The notes under the pieces: model-generated | Databases searched by the model: none | Told to the model about the DNA's origin: nothing | Seen by the model: the letters and a program-made list of their open reading frames with translations, nothing else | Shown here: positions 386 to 9,959 of the stretch, piece after piece | Layout of the letters: the number at the start of each line of letters is the position of its first letter | Numbering within the stretch: the first letter of the stretch is position 1 | IMG/VR virus record: IMGVR_UViG_2531839665_000023 | Length of the DNA: 45,588 nucleotides | Direction: 5' to 3' (one strand) | From: a virus | Lineage: Duplodnaviria > Heunggongvirae > Uroviricota > Caudoviricetes | Made by a program: the position numbers and the translations under genes

Positions 386-1609
386 ATGGCGCTGTCTGAT
401 GCGTGGTTGCGTTCAGTCGTTGGAAAGGAACGTGATAAGGTTTTGGTTAAATCCGATCGTGATGGTCTGTCTGTCAGAGTATCACCGAAAGGTCGCGTAG
501 TGTTCCAATATCGTTATCAATGGGCAGGGAAAGGTGAGCGTCTTGATATCGGAACTTACCCGGCAACTGGATTAAAAGAGGCCAGAGAAGAAGTTATCCG
601 TCTCCGTGGTGAACTCGAGTCAAACCGTAATCCACGATTGGTCAAGCAGGCTGAAAAACGAAAAGCTACTGAAGCCATGACGGTAGAGTCTGTGATCCGT
701 GCCTGGTATGAAGCATATTGTGTAAAAAATAAAAAGGGGTCTGAACAGATACTCCGCTCGTTTGAGCTGCACCTGTTCTCTAAAATCGGGAATATCCCTC
801 ACGATACAGCTACATTGCATGATTGGTTAGAAGTCCTGGAGCCTCTTAGCACTAAGACTCCAGCAATAGCAGACCGATTGCTAATTAACGCAAAGCAGGC
901 CCATGTCTGGGCGTATAAGAGAAAGCTCATTGAAACTCGCCCGCTGTCGGATATCACGGGTAAAGATATGGATATCCGTAAAGGTCAGAAGAAACGGTTT
1001 CTGACACATGATGAAATTAAAATCCTTTATGCTGCGATCGATGGTTCTCGAATGGTTCCTAAATACCGGGCCTTCATTAAACTATTGCTGCATTTTGGCT
1101 GCCGTAGTTCAGAGCTAATTACCGCCAGGGTGGACGATTTTGATTTCATTAATAAAGTATGGACTGTACCACCAGAACGACATAAGACTGGGGCGATAAC
1201 AGGCGAACCGCTAAAGCGGCCCATTATTGAACCGGTTGAAGAGCTTATAAAGTACGCTATCTCTATGAACAATGGTTCCGATATGCTTTTTACTAAGGAA
1301 GGAAGCAGGGAACCCGTTGGTCGGACATCATTGCAGTCGCTGCCTTACAATTTAATGCAGTACGCATGGCGGCGTTTGGGGTATCAATTCCCTCATTGGT
1401 CTCTTCATGATTTGAGGCGAACAGCACGAACAAACTTTTCTGATCTTACTGCGCCTCATATTGCAGAAATAATGCTCGGTCATAAACTGCCAGGGGTATG
1501 GCAGGTTTATGACAAGAGCGATTATTTAGAAGAACAGCGTAAAGCTTACCAGGCATGGTGGGAGAGAGTTGAATCGATCGTTACTCGTACCAGCTCAGAC
1601 TCCAACTGA
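386..1609 (+). CDS. int: Tyrosine site-specific integrase, P4-like family
   Basis: 407 aa; N-terminal arm-binding-type region (LSVRVSPKGRVVFQYRY), C-terminal catalytic motifs including HDLRRTARTN; sits next to the host/phage junction. Confidence 0.93.
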   Translation: MALSDAWLRSVVGKERDKVLVKSDRDGLSVRVSPKGRVVFQYRYQWAGKGERLDIGTYPATGLKEAREEVIRLRGELESNRNPRLVKQAEKRKATEAMTVESVIRAWYEAYCVKNKKGSEQILRSFELHLFSKIGNIPHDTATLHDWLEVLEPLSTKTPAIADRLLINAKQAHVWAYKRKLIETRPLSDITGKDMDIRKGQKKRFLTHDEIKILYAAIDGSRMVPKYRAFIKLLLHFGCRSSELITARVDDFDFINKVWTVPPERHKTGAITGEPLKRPIIEPVEELIKYAISMNNGSDMLFTKEGSREPVGRTSLQSLPYNLMQYAWRRLGYQFPHWSLHDLRRTARTNFSDLTAPHIAEIMLGHKLPGVWQVYDKSDYLEEQRKAYQAWWERVESIVTRTSSDSN

Positions 1610-1709
1610 CAGTTTGTGTTGAGCGAAGAGTGGAAGTTTGTAATGATTGATACAACTGATAAAGGTAATATTTAAATCGAGGTATGTTAATCAATGAGGA
1701 GCAGGTTAT

Positions 1710-2162
1710 ATGAGTCTTTCACGATTTTTATTGAAGATAATTCCATCCTCCTTCCTGAAGGAGGATGATGCTACTCAAAAAAAAAGTAATGAATTTATTG
1801 CTGAAGCCACATTCGGTTCTAACTTAGTCGATGGAGAGCCGACTTGGAAATGGGCTGAAGAACATAAAGATGACCTTGAGGTAATGAAACGATGCTGTGA
1901 TGCTGAACTAATAACAATGAAAAAATGTGGTTTAGTTCCTGCTCCTTATTATTTTGAGCGTGTTGCTATTCTTTCAAGAAAGAATAGTGATTATAGACAG
2001 GAAATATTTTATTGCGAGCAATACATTAAAATGGTTGAGGATTTTTATATTCAAAATGGAACACTAGGAATCGCTGATGTGAGAGAAAGTCCAAGGTTTA
2101 AGAGAATAGTAAAAAGATTGCAGCAAGCCAAAAAACTTTATGCAAAACAAATTTCTTTATAG
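1710..2162 (+). CDS. Hypothetical protein, first gene of AT-rich cargo cassette
   Basis: 150-aa ORF with GAGGAG Shine-Dalgarno about 10 nt upstream; visibly AT-rich versus flanking int; no recognised domain. Confidence 0.6.
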   Translation: MSLSRFLLKIIPSSFLKEDDATQKKSNEFIAEATFGSNLVDGEPTWKWAEEHKDDLEVMKRCCDAELITMKKCGLVPAPYYFERVAILSRKNSDYRQEIFYCEQYIKMVEDFYIQNGTLGIADVRESPRFKRIVKRLQQAKKLYAKQISL

Positions 2163-2203
2163 AAAAGCTCTTTGTCTTGAGAGCGTAAATTATAAGGGGT
2201 GAA

Positions 2204-2686
2204 ATGGGGTATTCATTTGAAATTACGTCTTCAATAGACCTTTTAAACGAACTATCTTGCAGAGTGGATGATTATAATAATAACAATTTATCATCTGGAA
2301 AAGCGGTAGTTTGCTCTATTTTTTGTTGGCACCTCGTTGAGTGGATTTATCATGAATATGATGATCAACTCTCAGAGTTCAAAAGATTAAGAGACTTTCA
2401 AGAATATGTAAAAAAAGCATGTGTTTCGCTATCTTTTATTCAAGCGGTGGCTAATGGGAGTAAGCATAGAGGAATCAATCGATATAAGCCAGCGGTGAGG
2501 TCAACTGAGCGAAAAAATGGAGCATTTTCATCAGGTTTTTCGAACGATTTTGATATCTCCCATTTAGTAATGGAAATAGAGGATGGAAAGTTTGTATACT
2601 TTCAAGAAGAAATAAATAAAGCATTATCCTTTTTGAAAAGTTATTTAAATGGATTAACAAATAATCCATTGATTAATAAAGAGTAA
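2204..2686 (+). CDS. Hypothetical protein, second gene of AT-rich cargo cassette
   Basis: 160-aa ORF with AGGGG Shine-Dalgarno; AT-rich; tandem with 1710-2162; no recognised domain. Confidence 0.6.
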   Translation: MGYSFEITSSIDLLNELSCRVDDYNNNNLSSGKAVVCSIFCWHLVEWIYHEYDDQLSEFKRLRDFQEYVKKACVSLSFIQAVANGSKHRGINRYKPAVRSTERKNGAFSSGFSNDFDISHLVMEIEDGKFVYFQEEINKALSFLKSYLNGLTNNPLINKE

Positions 2687-2707
2687 TTCTATCATCGTCA
2701 GATTTTG

Positions 2708-2746
2708 GGCACAGAGCAGACAGTTAGACTGGTTTGGCTCTGTGCC
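2708..2746. repeat. Perfect 10-bp inverted repeat (GGCACAGAGC / GCTCTGTGCC) with 19-nt loop between convergent transcription units
   Basis: Read directly; lies between cargo gene stop (2686) and the stop of the minus-strand AlpA-like gene (2782); no U-tract on either strand. Confidence 0.5.
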
Positions 2747-2781
2747 ATCTATGTGTCAGCTCATATCGGAGCTGGTTTATG

Positions 2782-2976
2782 TTACTCAATAACTCCCGCA
2801 AACCTGTAAATCTTGCGTGATGCCCATTTATTTGGGCAGGATTTAATATCAGGATCTGGAAAGTCTGGCCTGTATTTCTGGCCAGTTCTCCTGTTTACGC
2901 TGTTCCAGCGAAGAACTGTCGATACTGAAACTCCACAGAAGTTGGCGACTTGTTTAGTTGTCATTAAGTTGTTCAT
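2782..2976 (-). CDS. AlpA-family small HTH DNA-binding protein (putative excisionase/regulator)
   Basis: 64 aa; TTKQVANFCGVSVSTVLRW HTH followed by FPDP...W motif typical of AlpA/Xis-like proteins; last gene of leftward early operon. Confidence 0.65.
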   Translation of the reverse strand: MNNLMTTKQVANFCGVSVSTVLRWNSVNRRTGQKYRPDFPDPDIKSCPNKWASRKIYRFAGVIE

Positions 2977-3596
2977 TACTTTACCTCCTGCGGCGGCTCC
3001 GGTAGCGGCATCCAGTGGGTTACTTTCGATGCCGGTTCTTCCACATCGTCAGTAACTGCCCACCATTTGTTTCTCGACCAATCGTAATACCCTTCGAAGG
3101 TATCGCACTCAGTCCAGCCGTAAGACTTCCCCCAACACCAAACATACTGTTTATCGTCCGGCATTCGCTCACTACAGCTTATCCAACCATCCGGAGTTAC
3201 CGGAGAGTTGCCCGACAGCTCGTTCAACTTGTAAGTCTGGCTTACAGGTTCGGTACCATGAAGCATGGCGGCGCGGCAGGCGTTCCAGCCTTCATCAAAG
3301 CCGACTATGCCATTATTTAAAGACGGACGAACATCTGGCACCATCGGCACTGGCTTGGCTATATATAGCGGCTGAACATACCAGCCCTTTGATAACCAAC
3401 GGTCAGCAATGTTTTTACTCCGTGTTATTGCCGGAATACCTAAGCCATTGTCTGAATGCAGCCATGCCACCGGTTCTGCTTCCAGCGATACCAAAGCAAT
3501 TTCATAAGCACGGCGCTCAATATTGTCTCGCACATCCAGACTGCCTATGCGCTCTTTGATTTCTTTAATCAGTTCTTTGTCGGTAAATGTGGTCAT
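2976..3596 (-). CDS. Phage early protein with C-terminal DUF551-like domain
   Basis: 206 aa; Trp-rich C-terminus ending HWMPLPEPP; translationally coupled to neighbours. Confidence 0.7.
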   Translation of the reverse strand: MTTFTDKELIKEIKERIGSLDVRDNIERRAYEIALVSLEAEPVAWLHSDNGLGIPAITRSKNIADRWLSKGWYVQPLYIAKPVPMVPDVRPSLNNGIVGFDEGWNACRAAMLHGTEPVSQTYKLNELSGNSPVTPDGWISCSERMPDDKQYVWCWGKSYGWTECDTFEGYYDWSRNKWWAVTDDVEEPASKVTHWMPLPEPPQEVK

Positions 3597-4612: not shown

Positions 4613-5437
4613 TCAGGCGGTGAAAGTACCAATAAAGGTTTCTACTTTGCTGTCTTTGAATTTCTCAACAAGCAGATCACGAAATTCGTTAGCCATATCT
4701 TCCTGCACTGCTTCCAGCTGAATAATGCGCAGAACCAGTACAGGACGATCGCCAGTGATAATGCTGAGGCGTAATTTAAACGGACGTTCTTTCAGACCTT
4801 CAAACGGAACGCATTTAAATTCAAATGCCACTGGCATAATGTCTTTGGTCTTCGCTTCGACAGATTCCATCAGGGAGCGTTTGCCGCTGAAGTCATTATC
4901 TTCAAAATCAGCGGTCTGGTTTGCTTCAATCGTGATTTTACGGATTGCCGCAGCCGCTTTTGTTGCCTGAATGGCGTCACCATTAGCATCAAAGCCCACA
5001 AGGTAGTCGGCCCAGTCTTCAATCCATTCTGCCAGTGATTTCTGGGAGTTACGCTCGCCGTTAACAGACAACAGGGCAGAGAACGGTGCTGTCTTTTTCA
5101 GTTTGAGAGTGGCGGTGTTATCTGCGTGACCTGGTTCATCAATAGTACCCAGGTTAAGCACACTGACGGCACGCATATTATCAGCATCGATAAAGCAGCG
5201 GGTGCCTTCATCTGCAAGATCTTTAGAATAACGGGTAAAGTCATCGATGCTGGCAGTGGAAAGCGCGCCACGGAAACGGAAGCGATTTAAATTAAATTTT
5301 TCCAGATCATGAATGCGGAAATTCTCAGGCAATGCCACAGCATCGGCACCAATCTTACTGATAATTTCATTAACACCCTGAGCAGAAATAAGGGCATGGA
5401 TTTGATTAATTGCGGTTGCGTCTAAGTTCTGAGACAT
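4613..5437 (-). CDS. DUF2303-family phage early protein (YfdQ-like)
   Basis: 274 aa; size and sequence character match the CPS-53 YfdQ-type protein as recalled. Confidence 0.7.
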
Positions 5438-5502
5438 AATAAGTCCTCACTATATAAAGATATTCAGTGATGAGATAAATAATCAGTTAATTAAGAACGA
5501 TA

Positions 5503-5865
5503 TTAATGACCTGCTGCGCGTAGTTTTCCGTCAGGTTCACCGGCAAGAGTCAGTAATTGTCCCTGGTCTTCCTGCAGAATAGTCAGGCGACCACCGCGAT
5601 TGACATACATCGGCGTTTCGGTGGTGTCTTCTTCGGAAATTTTCCCGCGGTTAGTCGGGCGAACATATGAGAGTTTGTGTTTGATTTTCACACGGTTCTC
5701 ATCAAATGGTTCGATTTCCAGGTTGAGTGAGACCTTACCTTTGGTTTTCGTGTTCATCACACCGGAAGCGACTTCACTGAGAACTGCGCCGATTTTGGTT
5801 TCAAATACGCCGCCGTCCAGCTCCCCGATAAATGCCTGCACATCAGTACTGCGTTCGCTAGCCAT
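5503..5865 (-). CDS. Hypothetical early-left protein (first gene after PL leader)
   Basis: Track ORF trimmed to the ATG at 5865 preceded by GAGGAG; 120 aa. Confidence 0.65.
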   Translation of the reverse strand: MASERSTDVQAFIGELDGGVFETKIGAVLSEVASGVMNTKTKGKVSLNLEIEPFDENRVKIKHKLSYVRPTNRGKISEEDTTETPMYVNRGGRLTILQEDQGQLLTLAGEPDGKLRAAGH

Positions 5866-6000
5866 TTTGCTGCTCCTCATCATATCGACCCTGCAAGGTC
5901 GGTTGGTTTCTCCACAAAACAGAGAAGAACACCTGCGGTGGCAGCCGCCCGGATGGATTGGGTTATGAACCCGTCGTCCGGTGATGCTCTTCTCTGTTTT

Positions 6001-6048
6001 GTAAAAAGAGCGGTACCAGCCGGAAGCAAGTGTACAAACTGGTACCGC
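6001..6048 (-). terminator. Candidate intrinsic terminator in PL leader (tL-like)
   Basis: Minus strand: GCGGTACCAG - 19-nt loop - CTGGTACCGC followed by TCTTTTT. Confidence 0.5.
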
Positions 6049-6370
6049 CAAAGCAGTGGCTGTTGTGGTGGGGTTGTCACTCAGGCGTATGGTCAACCTG
6101 ACAATCCGGTGTCCTCAACGGGGAAAGAGTAACCCCGCCATACTTACCGCCGCGCCATTTCGCGGATTACCACAACGCTGAGAGCACTTAGCCAGTTACG
6201 GCACCACACTTTGTCGCGGCTCCATAAATGCCCTCATCGTTGCACCCTGGTCTCTTCCCAGGCGTCAAACCGGATCGCCACGCTGGTTAGGCGTCTTATC
6301 AGCATCATCATTGACTTGCACATTCCGGCTACCTGGTTTGTTTGCCCGAGCAAGAAGTGGATTGTCCCCT

Positions 6371-6451
6371 TTAACGTCCCCAGACCGCTAACGACGCATG
6401 TGCCATACGCCGTGTTACAACCAAATTTTGTTTGAATCTTGCCTGCCTCAT
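6371..6451 (-). CDS. Candidate 26-codon Arg-rich mini-ORF at the start of the PL transcript
   Basis: Minus-strand ATG at 6449-6451 about 10 nt downstream of the predicted PL start; encodes MRQARFKQNLVVTRRMAHASLAVWGR; weak ribosome-binding context. Confidence 0.2.
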   Translation of the reverse strand: MRQARFKQNLVVTRRMAHASLAVWGR

Positions 6452-6466
6452 GTTTCTTTTGGATAC

Positions 6467-6494
6467 ATTATGTACCTCATAGGTACATTGTCAA
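6467..6494 (-). promoter_or_regulatory. PL-like early-left promoter
   Basis: Minus strand TTGACA (6489-6494), 16-nt spacer, CATAAT (6467-6472); operator palindrome occupies the spacer. Confidence 0.55.
6471..6487. promoter_or_regulatory. OL operator, 17-bp palindrome TGTACCTCATAGGTACA
   Basis: Same half-sites as the two OR palindromes at 7226 and 7276. Confidence 0.55.
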
Positions 6495-6496
6495 GT

Positions 6497-6520
6497 ATAA
6501 AAAAACCTGCCGAAGCAGGT
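6497..6520 (-). terminator. Intrinsic terminator downstream of cI
   Basis: Minus strand hairpin CCTGC-TTCG-GCAGG followed by a U-run (A-run on plus strand) directly after the cI stop. Confidence 0.7.
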
Positions 6521-6533
6521 TCATAAATATTGA

Positions 6534-7208
6534 TTAGGCCTTTATTGTGTATCTTCTTGGTTTTCCCGAGAAAATCACTGTACCAATTATAGAGCAATTA
6601 CCGTTAATCTTAATGTAAGGCTCAGGCCAGTTTGGGTTTAATGCTTTGAGATAACGCTGTGTTCCATCTTCTATCAATCGCTTGAAGGTGGTTTCGCCTG
6701 TATCGTGCATCAATGCAATAACGTCGTCACCGTGGCAGGCAGGGACTTCGGGATCAACAAAAATCATGTCTCCAGGGCGGTACTCATCAATCATTGAATC
6801 ACCAATCACCCGCAAGATATAAGTCATTTCGCCACAGGGTACAGGGCAGGGATACGTTTCTGCTGTGCTCAAATCAACCTCAGAATAGCCAACTTCTTTC
6901 CATGCTCCGGCCTGTACCCATGATATGACAGGGACTAACGTTATTTGTTTGTTAGTGATTGAAACATCAGGTTTTTTTGTGATGTTCGTTGTCTGGTGTT
7001 CTTGATCAAGCCATCCGACAGGCAGGTCGAAACATTTTTCGATGTGCCGTGCCATGCTGTCACCGATATTTTTAGTAGCGCCATCCCCCATAAACCTGCT
7101 GGTTTGGGTTGGCTCGCGATCAATCATGGTGGCAAAGGATGAATTTCCGCCAACACCATCTCTCAGTTTTCTGGCGTTAGACCGCCGGATGTCATGGATT
7201 GTTTTCAT
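6534..7208 (-). CDS. cI: CI-type prophage repressor, HTH plus S24 LexA-like autopeptidase
   Basis: 224 aa; N-terminal HTH; QAGAW (Ala-Gly cleavage site), GDSM serine and downstream lysine (TFKRL). Confidence 0.9.
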   Translation of the reverse strand: MKTIHDIRRSNARKLRDGVGGNSSFATMIDREPTQTSRFMGDGATKNIGDSMARHIEKCFDLPVGWLDQEHQTTNITKKPDVSITNKQITLVPVISWVQAGAWKEVGYSEVDLSTAETYPCPVPCGEMTYILRVIGDSMIDEYRPGDMIFVDPEVPACHGDDVIALMHDTGETTFKRLIEDGTQRYLKALNPNWPEPYIKINGNCSIIGTVIFSGKPRRYTIKA

Positions 7209-7225
7209 AACGAAATTAAAACCTT

Positions 7226-7242
7226 TGTACCGATAAGGTACA
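7226..7242. promoter_or_regulatory. OR operator, 17-bp palindrome TGTACCGATAAGGTACA
   Basis: Between divergent cI and cro starts; overlaps predicted PRM -35. Confidence 0.55.
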
Positions 7243-7248
7243 AGTATC

Positions 7249-7276
7249 TTGAAGGTTCATTTCAATCATGTAATAT
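7249..7276 (+). promoter_or_regulatory. PR-like early-right promoter
   Basis: TTGAAG (7249-7254), 16-nt spacer, TAATAT (7271-7276), operator immediately downstream. Confidence 0.5.
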
Positions 7277-7292
7277 GTATACCGGAGGTACA
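7276..7292. promoter_or_regulatory. OR operator variant TGTATACCGGAGGTACA
   Basis: Shares GGTACA half-site; covers the predicted PR start site and the cro ribosome-binding site. Confidence 0.5.
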
Positions 7293-7298
7293 TATTGT

Positions 7299-7499
7299 AT
7301 GAAAGCGTATTGGGACTCTTTAACCAAAGAACAGCAGGGCGAGTTGGCCGGAAAAGTTGGCTCAACACCTGGCTACTTACGGCTGGTTTTCAATGGTTAT
7401 AAAAAAGCCAGTTTTGTGCTGGCGAAAAAACTTGAGCAATGCACGTCAGGTGCAATTACGAAATCTGACTTAAGACCGGATATCTATCCGAAAGATTAA
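7299..7499 (+). CDS. cro: Cro-like small HTH regulator
   Basis: 66 aa from the ATG preceded by GGAGGT; divergent from cI across the operator region. Confidence 0.75.
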   Translation: MKAYWDSLTKEQQGELAGKVGSTPGYLRLVFNGYKKASFVLAKKLEQCTSGAITKSDLRPDIYPKD

Positions 7500-7530
7500 C
7501 AGAACACCTTCAATTTTTAACCACAGAACG

Positions 7531-8094
7531 ATGAGGCTAACCGTGGGTAAGTATCACTGGAAAGTAGAAAAACAGCCTGAGTGGTACGTGAAAGCTGTCA
7601 GAAAAACTATCGCAGCGTTGCCGGGTGGTTACGCTGAAGCAGCTGACTGGCTGGATGTAACAGAGAACGCATTATTTAACCGCCTTCGTGCCGATGGCGA
7701 TCAGATTTTCCCGCTGGGATGGGCAATGGTTTTACAGCGTGCGGCTGGCACTCACTACATTGCGGATGCTGTCGCACAGTCTGCTGGTGGGGTGTTCGTA
7801 TCGCTTCCTGAAATTGAGGAAGTAGAGAACGCCGATATAAACCAGCGCCTGCTGGAAGTCATCGAACAGATCGGGAATTACTCAAAGCAGATTCGTTCGG
7901 CAATCGAAGATGGGGTCGTGGAGCCACACGAGCAGACAGCAATTAATGATGAGTTGTATCTGTCAATTTCGAAGCTCCAGGAGCATGCAGCACTGGTCTA
8001 CAAAATCTTTTGCGCTCCAGAAAAGAGTGACGCCCGCGAGTGTGCAGCTCCGGGCGTCGTGGCGTTTTGTGTCTGTGGAGAAACTAACGCATGA
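7531..8094 (+). CDS. Putative CII-like early regulatory protein
   Basis: 187 aa; position directly after cro; family assignment from memory only. Confidence 0.45.
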   Translation: MRLTVGKYHWKVEKQPEWYVKAVRKTIAALPGGYAEAADWLDVTENALFNRLRADGDQIFPLGWAMVLQRAAGTHYIADAVAQSAGGVFVSLPEIEEVENADINQRLLEVIEQIGNYSKQIRSAIEDGVVEPHEQTAINDELYLSISKLQEHAALVYKIFCAPEKSDARECAAPGVVAFCVCGETNA

Positions 8095-8927
8095 ACAGTT
8101 TAACGGCAAATAACCGTTTGTCGCAACAGCTGGTGGTCAGTGTCGCTGAACACCTGTTGTTACGGCATGAATGCAGATTACCAAATCACCTGGCTGTAAG
8201 TAACCACAGAGAACTTTACCTGACTGTGGGGGGCGAGTTGTGCGGGAACTTAACCGCTGGTTTCGTGACGGAAGAGGGCTTTATGTCCATGTTATTCGTT
8301 GGGAACCAGAAACACAGCGCGTTATCTATCTTCGCAAAGACTACCCGCATGAGTGCTTTAGTCCTTTGTGGAAATTCAGGCGTGATTTTGTTGAGTGTGA
8401 AGGACCACCAGCACATTGATTCTGCCATTCCGGGACGTTACACTGTTCAGGCACCTTATAAAGCGGGTGCCGGGATTGGCGTCCTGGAATTGATCAAGGC
8501 GATATATGACGCGCCAGCGTCTTTTTTATCGTCCGCATTTGCTCACATCAAAGTTATGGTGGGCTGGGCGGGGGCATCGAAAGATGCGCCGGTTTCCTTG
8601 ATCACCGGTTACGCCAACCCCGTTCAGTTCACCACCAGCGAAATTGGCGTTTCCGGTGGTGGAAGTATTTCACCGATCAAGGAGGCTGCCATCATGGCTA
8701 CTGTCCCAGCCCTCACTCGTCTGAATGATGAAGACTTACATAAACTCAGTTATGTAACAACTGCACTACGTGCTCTGCGCAAGGTAACTCTTTCGGATCC
8801 GCAGGCGCATCAGGTTCTGGTAGAAACCCTTCTTAACTTGCAGGCTGAACGTATCCGTTTGGTGGATAAGGCTAATTTTCATATTCACCGTCTCCTGAAT
8901 ATCAGCGGAGGGCATCGTCATGCTTAA
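8091..8927 (+). CDS. Hypothetical protein; ORF of doubtful extent
   Basis: Track ORF; N-terminal third is low-complexity and an alternative frame (8240-8419) reads more protein-like; C-terminal part more convincing. Confidence 0.35.
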   Translation: MNSLTANNRLSQQLVVSVAEHLLLRHECRLPNHLAVSNHRELYLTVGGELCGNLTAGFVTEEGFMSMLFVGNQKHSALSIFAKTTRMSALVLCGNSGVILLSVKDHQHIDSAIPGRYTVQAPYKAGAGIGVLELIKAIYDAPASFLSSAFAHIKVMVGWAGASKDAPVSLITGYANPVQFTTSEIGVSGGGSISPIKEAAIMATVPALTRLNDEDLHKLSYVTTALRALRKVTLSDPQAHQVLVETLLNLQAERIRLVDKANFHIHRLLNISGGHRHA

Positions 8928-9156
8928 TCCGTTGAGCCTCAATATTCGCCGTTTACTTCAGCGTAAAAAAACATCAATTCCTACAGTTGGGCAGTGGTAC
9001 ACCACGCCTGCAGGGCATGTTCTACGTGTTAGCCTGGTTGACCGTGAATGTCAGAAAGTGATTTGTGAACCGCTGGGCCGTAATTACCGCGTCAGTATGC
9101 CGCTTATAGCCTTTCGCTCCGGAAAAAACACGAAGCATCTCGGAGGTGCTGCATGA
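8920..9156 (+). CDS. Hypothetical small phage protein
   Basis: 78-aa ORF coupled to the downstream replication gene. Confidence 0.45.
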   Translation: MLNPLSLNIRRLLQRKKTSIPTVGQWYTTPAGHVLRVSLVDRECQKVICEPLGRNYRVSMPLIAFRSGKNTKHLGGAA

Positions 9157-9959
9157 GTATGGAGCTGATGGTTAAAGCGATGAAAATTCGAGTGGGAAAT
9201 CCATTGCGAAAACTGGTTCTGATTAAGCTGGCTGATAATGCCAGCGATCAGGGCGAGTGCTGGCCCAGCTATCAGCATATCGCTGATCAGTGCGAGATTA
9301 GCAAACGTTCTGTGATGAATCATATTGCGGCCCTCTGTGAGTCCGGGCTGGTAAAAAAAGTCACCAGGAAAGGTGAAAAAGGTAACTCAAGTAATATCTA
9401 TCTTCTTCATCTTGATGGTGCAGGAGATTCACTAGGGGGTAGTGCAAATAATTCACTATCTGGTGCAGCAAATTCACCAGGTAGTGCAGGAGTTGCACCA
9501 GGGGGTAGTGCAGGAGATTCACCCAGAACCAGTCACTCTTTTGAACCAGTCAATGAACCAATAGCTGTTGGTGCATCTGCTGATGAGTCTGTGCGAGTTC
9601 GTTCAAACCGACCGGAATACTCTCCGGAGTTTGAGCAGGCATGGCTGGCATATCCCAAACGTGCTGGTGGCAATTCAAAATCTGCAGCCTTCAAAGCCTG
9701 GAAAGCCCGTTTGAATGAGGGGGTAAAACCCGAAACCATGCTGGAAGGTGTGAAACGCTACGCGGGCTGGGTATCTGCGATGGGTAACAGCGGCACACAA
9801 TTTGTGAAACAGGCTGTCACGTTCTTTGGTCCGGATCGTCATTTCGAAGAATCCTGGGAAGTTCCTGCGGTATCTGCAGCCAGACGCGAGGACCCGTACT
9901 TCAAAGCCAGTTACGACAACGTGGACTACAGCCAGATCCCGGCAGGATTCAGGGGGTAA
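9153..9959 (+). CDS. Replication initiation protein, O-like, N-terminal winged HTH
   Basis: HTH segment (SYQHIADQCEISKRSVMNHIAAL), Gly/Ser-rich linker encoded by iteron-like repeats, C-terminal replication-protein-like region. Confidence 0.75.
   Translation: MSMELMVKAMKIRVGNPLRKLVLIKLADNASDQGECWPSYQHIADQCEISKRSVMNHIAALCESGLVKKVTRKGEKGNSSNIYLLHLDGAGDSLGGSANNSLSGAANSPGSAGVAPGGSAGDSPRTSHSFEPVNEPIAVGASADESVRVRSNRPEYSPEFEQAWLAYPKRAGGNSKSAAFKAWKARLNEGVKPETMLEGVKRYAGWVSAMGNSGTQFVKQAVTFFGPDRHFEESWEVPAVSAARREDPYFKASYDNVDYSQIPAGFRG
9418..9525 (+). repeat. Five imperfect ~21-bp direct repeats (iteron-like) inside the initiator gene; candidate origin
   Basis: GGTGCAGGAGATTCACTAGGG / GGTAGTGCAAATAATTCACT / GGTGCAGCAAATTCACCAGGT / AGTGCAGGAGTTGCACCAGGG / GGTAGTGCAGGAGATTCACCC, followed by GAACCAGTCA repeats. 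Confidence 0.6.

Follow-up and report, generated by a model that had tools for sequence, protein, structure and literature searches.

HEPN-like effectors are already well known as cargo of prophage hotspots, and several described systems offer close points of comparison for such genes. In HEPN domains the Rx4-6H motif stands at the end of helix 3, with N, D or H usually following the arginine, while a conserved acidic residue is placed in helix 2 and inserts are common (PMC3710099). Families such as Parep1/8 and c2405 keep the histidine without the arginine (PMC3710099), and HEPN genes occur in operons with Sel1/TPR genes in the case of AbiU2 and LA2681 (Anantharaman et al. 2013, PMC3710099). 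HepS is a solo HEPN abortive-infection protein of the lambdoid Gifsy-1 prophage (PMC13043305). Among systems of other kinds, Panacea (PanA, DUF4065) represents a conserved domain found in partnership with toxins of many unrelated families (PMC10440598), and the gpA-gpQ hotspot of P2 holds defence systems, as reported by Rousset et al. (PMC9122126). The subject of the present study is a two-gene cassette, orfA-orfB, located between the integrase gene and an AlpA-like gene in a 45,588-nucleotide stretch of Caudoviricetes DNA (IMG/VR record IMGVR_UViG_2531839665_000023), the whole of which is hereafter called the window. The window represents a lambdoid (Qin/CPS-53-like) Escherichia coli prophage integrated in prfC, the 5' end of which lies at 91-161. 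The cassette is a self-contained mobile operon of about 1.1 kb that most likely acts as an anti-phage module of an abortive-infection or toxin-antitoxin-like kind (rough probability 0.45). Its novelty lies in the variant motif of orfB, the undescribed protein families and the behaviour of orfA.

Both genes are found co-oriented on the plus strand and encode proteins of 150 and 160 amino acids (aa), as the initial annotation had described, and open reading frame (ORF) and Pfam evidence places them between the integrase gene and the AlpA-like gene (Table 1). The two Shine-Dalgarno sites lie 8 nucleotides (nt) 5' of the orfA ATG (GAGGAG) and 5 nt 5' of the orfB ATG (AAGGGG). The AT-richness claimed for the region is borne out by a GC content of 0.32-0.38 over 1500-2850, compared with 0.44-0.53 in the integrase and early-left genes; the stretch that holds the two ORFs has 32-36% GC. 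RefSeq gives the product name 'hypothetical protein' to both WP_000059336.1 and WP_000542348.1; judged by their sequences, they are real genes, both being members of protein families in which some residues are invariant. Homology breaks set the limits of the cassette at about 1617/1619 and about 2700/2715.

Table 1. Features of the cassette and its surroundings in the window.
Feature	Positions	Strand	Remarks
Non-coding leader	1619-1709	+	Presumed promoter and 5' untranslated region; carries the orfA Shine-Dalgarno site; defined by DNA homology breaks
orfA	1710-2162	+	150 aa; WP_000059336.1; TPR-like, all-helical by prediction; undescribed family
Spacer	2163-2203	+	41 nt; carries the orfB Shine-Dalgarno site
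orfB	2204-2686	+	160 aa; WP_000542348.1; HEPN-like four-helix by prediction; variant motif D-[IL]-x-N-[GA]-x-K-H
Hairpin with perfect 10-bp stem	2708-2746		Backbone element, apparent recombination junction; RNA fold and sibling conservation
Second hairpin, 8 bp	2755-2776	+	Backbone; weak T-rich tail after it; terminator-like scan call
Tyrosine integrase gene	386-1609	+	Left boundary of the slot, outside the cassette; Pfam Phage_integrase, Arm-DNA-bind_3, Phage_int_M
AlpA/excisionase-like helix-turn-helix gene, 64 aa	2782-2976	-	Right boundary of the slot, context; Pfam HTH_17 E 2.6e-4, under the curated cutoff
DUF551 gene	2976-3596	-	Closes the early-left operon together with the AlpA-like ORF

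The orfA-orfB pair recurs as a unit in other mobile elements. It is present in P2-like Enterobacter-type phages (loci L138-L141), between gpA/DinI and the portal gene, where the copies adjoin SieB or a HATPase-DUF4325 pair; it also stands at the end of a DarA/ddrB-ParB element (L037-L039) and in one further metagenomic context (L135). The DNA is 83% identical to the P2-like copy (L138) over window positions 1619-2715 and 75% identical to the Dar-element copy (L037) over 1606-2721, and the transferred block therefore extends from just past the integrase stop codon to the hairpin. In every lineage whose orfB is at least 63% identical to that of the window (five lineages), orfA lies directly upstream (66-100% identical). 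The spacer measures 41-44 nt and contains a conserved TAAGG(G/A) motif in four of the five lineages, the gap in L137 being 16 nt, and the linkage persists down to 63-67% protein identity. Such comparisons provide good evidence that orfA and orfB form a single operon, selected and transferred as a pair, their status as a module being drawn from this linkage. The movement of the pair into a second documented defence hotspot, P2 gpA-gpQ, also agrees with its proposed nature as cargo. In the P2-like hotspot, genes for a 324/360-aa protein and a DUF4325 protein come after the pair and constitute another two-gene cargo (L138 6891-8203; L047 5274-6694).

The same distribution bears on a possible, if rather unlikely, alternative in which two independent single-gene functions share one promoter and do not interact. 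In that case, orfB would be a solo HEPN-like abortive-infection protein of the HepS style, silent by default, and orfA an autonomous defence-island gene. Each family is indeed widespread without the other, and HepS, itself a small HEPN protein, needs no partner (PMC13043305). However, across five lineages and at least three unrelated mobile elements, orfA and orfB are always transferred together, sharing a single leader and separated by a short spacer that lacks a promoter, and HEPN-type genes of other families recur after orfA.

Within the 90-nt leader, the stretch AAGGTAATATTTAAATCGAGGTATGTTAATCAA (3' half of 1619-1709) is nearly invariant across three mobile-element contexts (alignment A6), and its DNA conservation across them exceeds that of the coding sequence that follows. 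This conservation suggests a promoter, an operator or an RNA element. The promoter is only inferred, since a sigma-70 consensus scan called no site in the leader. In the spacer, the plus-strand scan called neither a promoter nor a terminator. Additionally, a perfect palindrome of 10-11 bp, CATCCTCCTTCCTGAAGGAGGATG, lies in the 5' end of orfA (1743-1768), where the Shine-Dalgarno-like AGGAGG pairs with CCUCCU. It was considered as a regulatory hairpin and set aside, being unconserved in the P2-like and Dar-element copies of the cassette and lying in a region with a fold z-score of -1.8; it is probably incidental to the coding sequence.

The slot between the integrase and excisionase-like genes (int-xis slot) behaves as a cargo hotspot. 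Among 5,426 complete E. coli genomes, the integrase (counted at >=90% identity) is found in 700/5,426, and the cassette in 28/5,426, always as a single copy and mostly in O145:H28. An integrase >=99% identical to that of the window also occurs in 28 genomes; the two sets were matched by count alone, and the equal number suggests one lineage. Between the same flanks, related prophages carry unrelated genes, including an AIPR abortive-infection gene, a dGTPase-family gene, a DUF6602 gene, an 868-aa HNH endonuclease, hypothetical proteins of 239, 271 and 428 aa and, in Stx1a and Stx2c converting phages, a 517-aa membrane protein. The comparison of this position across prophages thus upholds the earlier proposal of a hotspot. 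Variable occupancy of a fixed slot, deviant composition and the occurrence of the same cassette in unrelated elements, all features of accessory cargo, are observed here. In this respect, the cassette resembles the defence cargo of P2 old/tin and P4 psu-int, which consists of variable, AT-rich, promoter-carrying cassettes at fixed slots (PMC9122126), whereas the int-xis slot of prfC lambdoid prophages is a separate locus.

A position beside int, where lambda has xis and regulatory elements, might speak for ordinary conserved phage housekeeping or regulatory genes. Such a role is refuted by the distribution and retains hardly any probability: only 28 of about 700 integrase carriers hold the cassette, the rest hold unrelated genes, the GC content is deviant, and the same block is found in P2-like phages and a non-phage element. 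No homology to housekeeping proteins was detected, PHROGs giving no significant match for either protein (best E 0.024), nor is the cassette present in all related prophages. The variability of cargo between the same flanks therefore excludes a housekeeping role. As regards the 517-aa protein, it is encoded on the opposite strand at L002 2046-3599 (Stx2c phage PV98-693) and occupies the same slot in 24 Stx1a/Stx2c phage records, in phages whose integrase is near-identical to that of the window. It is unannotated, its N-terminus looks multi-pass hydrophobic, and it represents another cargo candidate.

The perfect 10-bp stem reported at the right edge of the cassette exists, its arms GGCACAGAGC (2708-2717) and GCTCTGTGCC (2737-2746) being perfectly complementary, with an RNA fold z-score of -4.3 and 0/200 shuffles folding equally well. 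The claim that this hairpin closes the cassette as part of it did not hold. Both hairpins are kept in sibling prfC prophages with AIPR, dGTPase or the 428/517-aa membrane protein, and in BEN2908 (alignment A4). The 86-nt hairpin region occurs as one copy per genome in 354 E. coli genomes, and the two places inspected were again the prfC prophage with a different cargo at each. The hairpin is counted as phage backbone because it is conserved whatever cargo the siblings carry, and a cassette terminator was ruled out on the same conservation; the hairpin at 2708-2746 has no U tract on either strand. The simplest reading is that it would end the leftward transcript through the AlpA-like gene or serve as a processing site. 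A 22-nt core, GCACAGASNNGMCNGTYWGAYT (left arm and loop, window 2709-2730), is also found in prfC lambdoid prophages with other cargo (L002 3752-3773; L003 4034-4055) and in P2-like phages (L138 6504-6525), where it lies about 20 nt 3' of orfB and the right arm is different. From this pattern, exchange of the cassette seems to have involved a break within the hairpin, and the core may mark the recombination junction of the slot.

The first gene, orfA, belongs to a highly conserved family, with 251 matches that are 55-74% identical over full length and a mean column identity of 78% in an alignment of 76 sequences. The invariant residues are N38, C62, C63, E66, L67, F82, E83, V85, A86, R90, E98, Y105, Y113, R125, R136 and A140. 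Its hosts include Gammaproteobacteria, Desulfuromonadaceae, Latescibacterota, Spirochaetales, Virgibacillus, Nitrospira, Fulvivirga and others, and even at the DNA level orfA is 71% identical to a Pseudoalteromonas copy. The predicted model (predicted local distance difference test (pLDDT) 82) has a disordered N-terminus and is otherwise all-helical, matching generic TPR/MIT-like repeats only. None of the 76 family members matched a Pfam family, the Sel1 and TPR models included, and a PDB sequence search with profile A3 gave no meaningful match. A weak match of orfA to EcoEI_R_C was rejected, being common to none of 75 relatives.

The absence of any recognisable domain, as initially stated for both proteins, is confirmed by sequence searches (Pfam, PADLOC, PHROGs and NCBIfam) but has to be qualified at the level of models, which look HEPN-like for orfB and TPR-like for orfA. 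In PADLOC-DB v2, no family was found at E<=1 for either protein. The pair is undescribed at the sequence level, as had been supposed, without a Pfam, NCBIfam, PHROGs, PADLOC or PDB sequence match. WP_000059336, WP_000542348 and their sequence fragments are absent from those parts of the DefensePredictor supplements that were examined, and orfA and orfB fragments are likewise absent from the examined portion of the supplementary tables of Rousset 2022 (PMC9122126). Neither family was found described in the libraries and literature searched, a body from which Brenes and Laub 2025 and newer defence-system catalogues stand apart.

The genomic contexts of orfA were analysed in 116 loci with 94 unique orfA genes. 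Members of the orfB family stand after orfA in the Enterobacterales clade alone; elsewhere, the genes that lie close downstream of orfA in the same orientation belong to 33 families. Some of these partners bear a HEPN signature, namely RNKFIH/RNDQVH (L008/L103; weak HEPN_Cthe2314 and RTasHEPN matches), RNEFAH (L022; weak DUF4145 and Csm6 matches), RNSWEH (L011) and RNALFH (the L023 group), and an RN...H pattern occurs in 9/52 orfA partners against 23/570 background ORFs. Other immediate neighbours include TIR genes (CAP12-type TIR and TIR_2), a restriction-modification XhoI endonuclease with an AAA_13 ATPase, DUF2971, a nucleotidyltransferase and Shedu SduA, and the neighbour in L044 is a probable PD-(D/E)xK protein by its D...ExK motif, read by eye. 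A PADLOC scan of 148 ORFs near orfA gave matches to HerA, MADS, AriA and PDC-S06/S11/S66. With neighbourhoods so rich in defence genes in many phyla, orfA is counted as a defence-island gene on the evidence of context. In Shewanella (L040-L043, 5001-10438), 350 nt separate an orfA homologue (68% identical) from a downstream type II CBASS operon that is complete, with CD-NTase, E1/E2, JAB and a SAVED effector. On its other side, the homologue is preceded by SSB and several small ORFs resembling a conjugative leading region.

Like Panacea, orfA is a small conserved domain with at least 33 downstream families that include HEPN-like, TIR and nuclease genes. It differs in lacking a DUF4065 match in Pfam and in its predicted TPR-like fold, much higher conservation and weak neighbour polarity. 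A bolder and unlikely extension would make orfA an ultra-conserved, hyper-promiscuous adaptor passed between bacterial phyla, a universal switch for HEPN variants, TIR, PD-(D/E)xK and other nucleases, with orfB as a new catalytic HEPN variant in which a Lys-His dyad stands in for Arg...His. Since the identity of orfA across E. coli, Spirochaetales, Nitrospira and Firmicutes stays at 55-74%, such an adaptor would read a signal common to hosts rather than a phage protein, for example a conserved host component or a small molecule.

The second gene, orfB, is probably derived from a HEPN domain, an ancestry that has moderate support. An exhaustive profile search yielded 517 representatives of the family (50%-identity clusters, E<=0.001), nearly all of 145-165 aa; a word-indexed search yielded 15 relatives. 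Residues were counted in an alignment of 60 family members whose identity to orfB is 25-43%. Full invariance is confined to K87 and H88, and N84, four residues before H88, is kept in 49/60, the family consensus being that given in Table 1. Position 46, which falls within the predicted helix 31-51 (helix 2), is D or E in 60/60 (E46 in orfB) and corresponds to the conserved acid that HEPN domains carry in helix 2 near the motif. Agreement with the Rx4-6H motif is partial, as the family has an invariant K87 instead; orfB follows all the placement rules of HEPN domains in PMC3710099 except the arginine. In the AlphaFold2 model (pLDDT 73), there are four long helices, the third of which is closed by K-H and followed by an insert with a small beta-hairpin. 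Searches of PDB sequences with orfB profiles A2 and A5 gave no match, and orfB is called HEPN-like rather than a member of HEPN because neither a HEPN profile nor a PDB sequence matches it. Relatives of orfB at <=50% identity adjoin unrelated genes, such as a kinase, a PIN gene after a type I restriction-modification system, and HicAB. Twelve downstream partners of orfA homologues were also compared with orfB and rejected as relatives, all with hhalign probabilities of about 1% or less. Two partners, with N-S-I-K-H (L045 5528-6499, Idiomarina) and R-N-A-S-K-H (L077 2690-3184), echo the N-x-x-K-H of orfB at the motif level only.

Compared with described HEPN proteins, orfB combines familiar and unusual features. 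Like Parep1/8 and c2405, it keeps the histidine and loses the arginine, for which another conserved basic residue has been proposed as a substitute (PMC3710099). Like AbiU2 and LA2681, it is a HEPN-like gene in an operon with a putative helical-repeat protein, whereas no HEPN model in Pfam, HEPN_AbiU2 and HEPN_LA2681 included, matches orfB and no Sel1/TPR model matches orfA. We know of no K-H dyad described for the Parep1/8, c2405, AbiU2 or LA2681 families. MNT-HEPN toxins (for example SO_3166; PDB 5yep, 7ae2, 8xdj) have R-N-x-x-x-H in place of the x-N-x-x-K-H of orfB, which lacks a sequence-profile match and carries a 45-residue insert with the beta-hairpin after its motif. Their partner is a minimal nucleotidyltransferase, unlike the TPR-like orfA, which has no NTP_transf match and an all-helical TPR/MIT-like model; neutralisation of the AMPylation type is therefore not expected. 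HepS is likewise a small HEPN-type protein carried as accessory cargo by a lambdoid prophage, and distant relatives of orfB apparently stand alone too; at a detectable level, orfB is not its homologue, as the orfB profile finds no PDB sequence.

If the cassette is an anti-phage module, a mechanism can be sketched in which orfA and orfB form an operon with its own leader and orfB is the effector. As a putative divergent HEPN-type RNase, orfB would have an active site composed of H88, K87, N84 and E46, in which K87 would replace the missing catalytic arginine of Rx4-6H and N84 would take the canonical 'R+1' position. Once activated, it would cleave RNA (tRNA, rRNA or mRNA) and thereby halt phage growth, by analogy with HEPN toxins. 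The helical-repeat protein orfA would bind orfB and either silence it or couple it to an infection cue, in the manner of promiscuous antitoxin or sensor domains, which take many unrelated toxins as partners.

Several points weigh against this interpretation. At the level of orfB, the arginine that defines HEPN is missing in 60/60 members, position 83 being A, C, T, S, I or V; the model is disordered over residues 88-113, an unreliable loop; and the best Foldseek E-value for a HEPN match is 1.1, with a template-modelling score of about 0.4-0.47. Four-helix bundles are, moreover, a common fold. No HEPN model in Pfam, NCBIfam or PADLOC matches orfB or any of the 60 relatives. The two genes are also separable, as 0/25 species-representative orfA loci have an orfB relative and relatives of orfB at <=50% identity lack orfA. 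The extreme conservation of orfA would be atypical for an antitoxin or a phage sensor. Its neighbours show no clear polarity, with a close co-oriented ORF downstream in 39/70 and upstream in 32/65, counts that do not mark orfA as a dedicated upstream partner. Solitary orfA-like genes, moreover, lie beside tail-fibre genes in viral contigs L048-L050. Together, the weak polarity and the solitary genes mean that an architecture of orfA followed by an effector is not established outside the clade studied, and both would suit two independent genes. Finally, the defence, exclusion or toxin-antitoxin function suggested by the initial annotation would follow entirely from context, and orfA also adjoins Dar anti-restriction and SSB-type leading-region genes, which would fit counter-defence.

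Counter-defence or establishment by orfA, with or without orfB, is an improbable alternative, in which orfB would be a catalytically dead HEPN-like domain binding RNA or protein. The canonical arginine is lost in orfB, and HEPN domains without catalytic residues may be binding domains (PMC3710099). The pair adjoins DarA/ddrB-ParB anti-restriction homologues, orfA is found downstream of SSB and small ORFs of conjugative leading-region type, and broad-range anti-defence genes typically show such high conservation from host to host. On the other hand, K87, H88, D/E46 and N84 are conserved as in a working active site. Many orfA loci are chromosomal islands beside effectors rather than phages or plasmids, and defence genes are the main cargo for which the int-xis and P2 gpA-gpQ slots are known.

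Another alternative of low probability is a classical type II toxin-antitoxin addiction module, with orfA as antitoxin and orfB as toxin, which would stabilise the element and have no part in phage defence. Two small co-transcribed genes with a short gap and a HEPN-like second gene would resemble MNT-HEPN pairs, and some orfB relatives lie in toxin-antitoxin-rich surroundings (HicAB, Phd). Furthermore, int and the cassette are kept in a decayed O145:H28 prophage with an IS3 element and a deleted early region. Nevertheless, orfA has neither a DNA-binding nor a nucleotidyltransferase domain and is far more conserved than typical antitoxins, and the two defence hotspots and defence-rich neighbourhoods fit defence better, although toxin-antitoxin and defence roles are not mutually exclusive. 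As for the decayed prophage itself, in O145:H28 RM13514 (L001, locus 4777-9492) the IS3 element follows the DUF551 gene. The early and lysis region is entirely gone, leaving a direct join to a truncated DUF1441 gene and the terminase. This decay is seen in the O145:H28 outbreak lineage, in which both the integrase and the orfA-orfB cassette have nonetheless stayed intact, with 100% identity in about 20 genomes.

Beyond the cassette, strain L1PEag1 holds an identical copy of the window prophage, between yjjG and phage genes. At the right boundary of the slot, the AlpA-like ORF (64 aa) has a near-identical copy in an Stx2c phage and is conserved in Stx1a phages too. The ORF is unannotated in the RefSeq records of L1PEag1 and RM13514, and the likely excisionase of this prophage family has therefore been missed by annotation.

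If the phage-resistance phenotype were negative, the locus would still represent a clean exchange of a cassette between lambdoid and P2-like hotspots, with a junction within a backbone hairpin. If phage resistance is true, the cassette would be a defence module made of two families that Pfam, NCBIfam, PHROGs and PADLOC v2 do not contain; one of them comprises at least 517 clusters at 50% identity, while the other extends across many phyla. Its HEPN-type active site would be one that functions despite the loss of the signature arginine, and the int-xis slot of prfC lambdoid prophages would become a further source of defence cargo. This prophage family, to which Stx1a and Stx2c converting phages belong, is carried by about 13% of complete E. 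coli genomes. Moreover, the conservation of orfA, together with its varied effector neighbours, offers a tractable case of one small protein serving many effectors.

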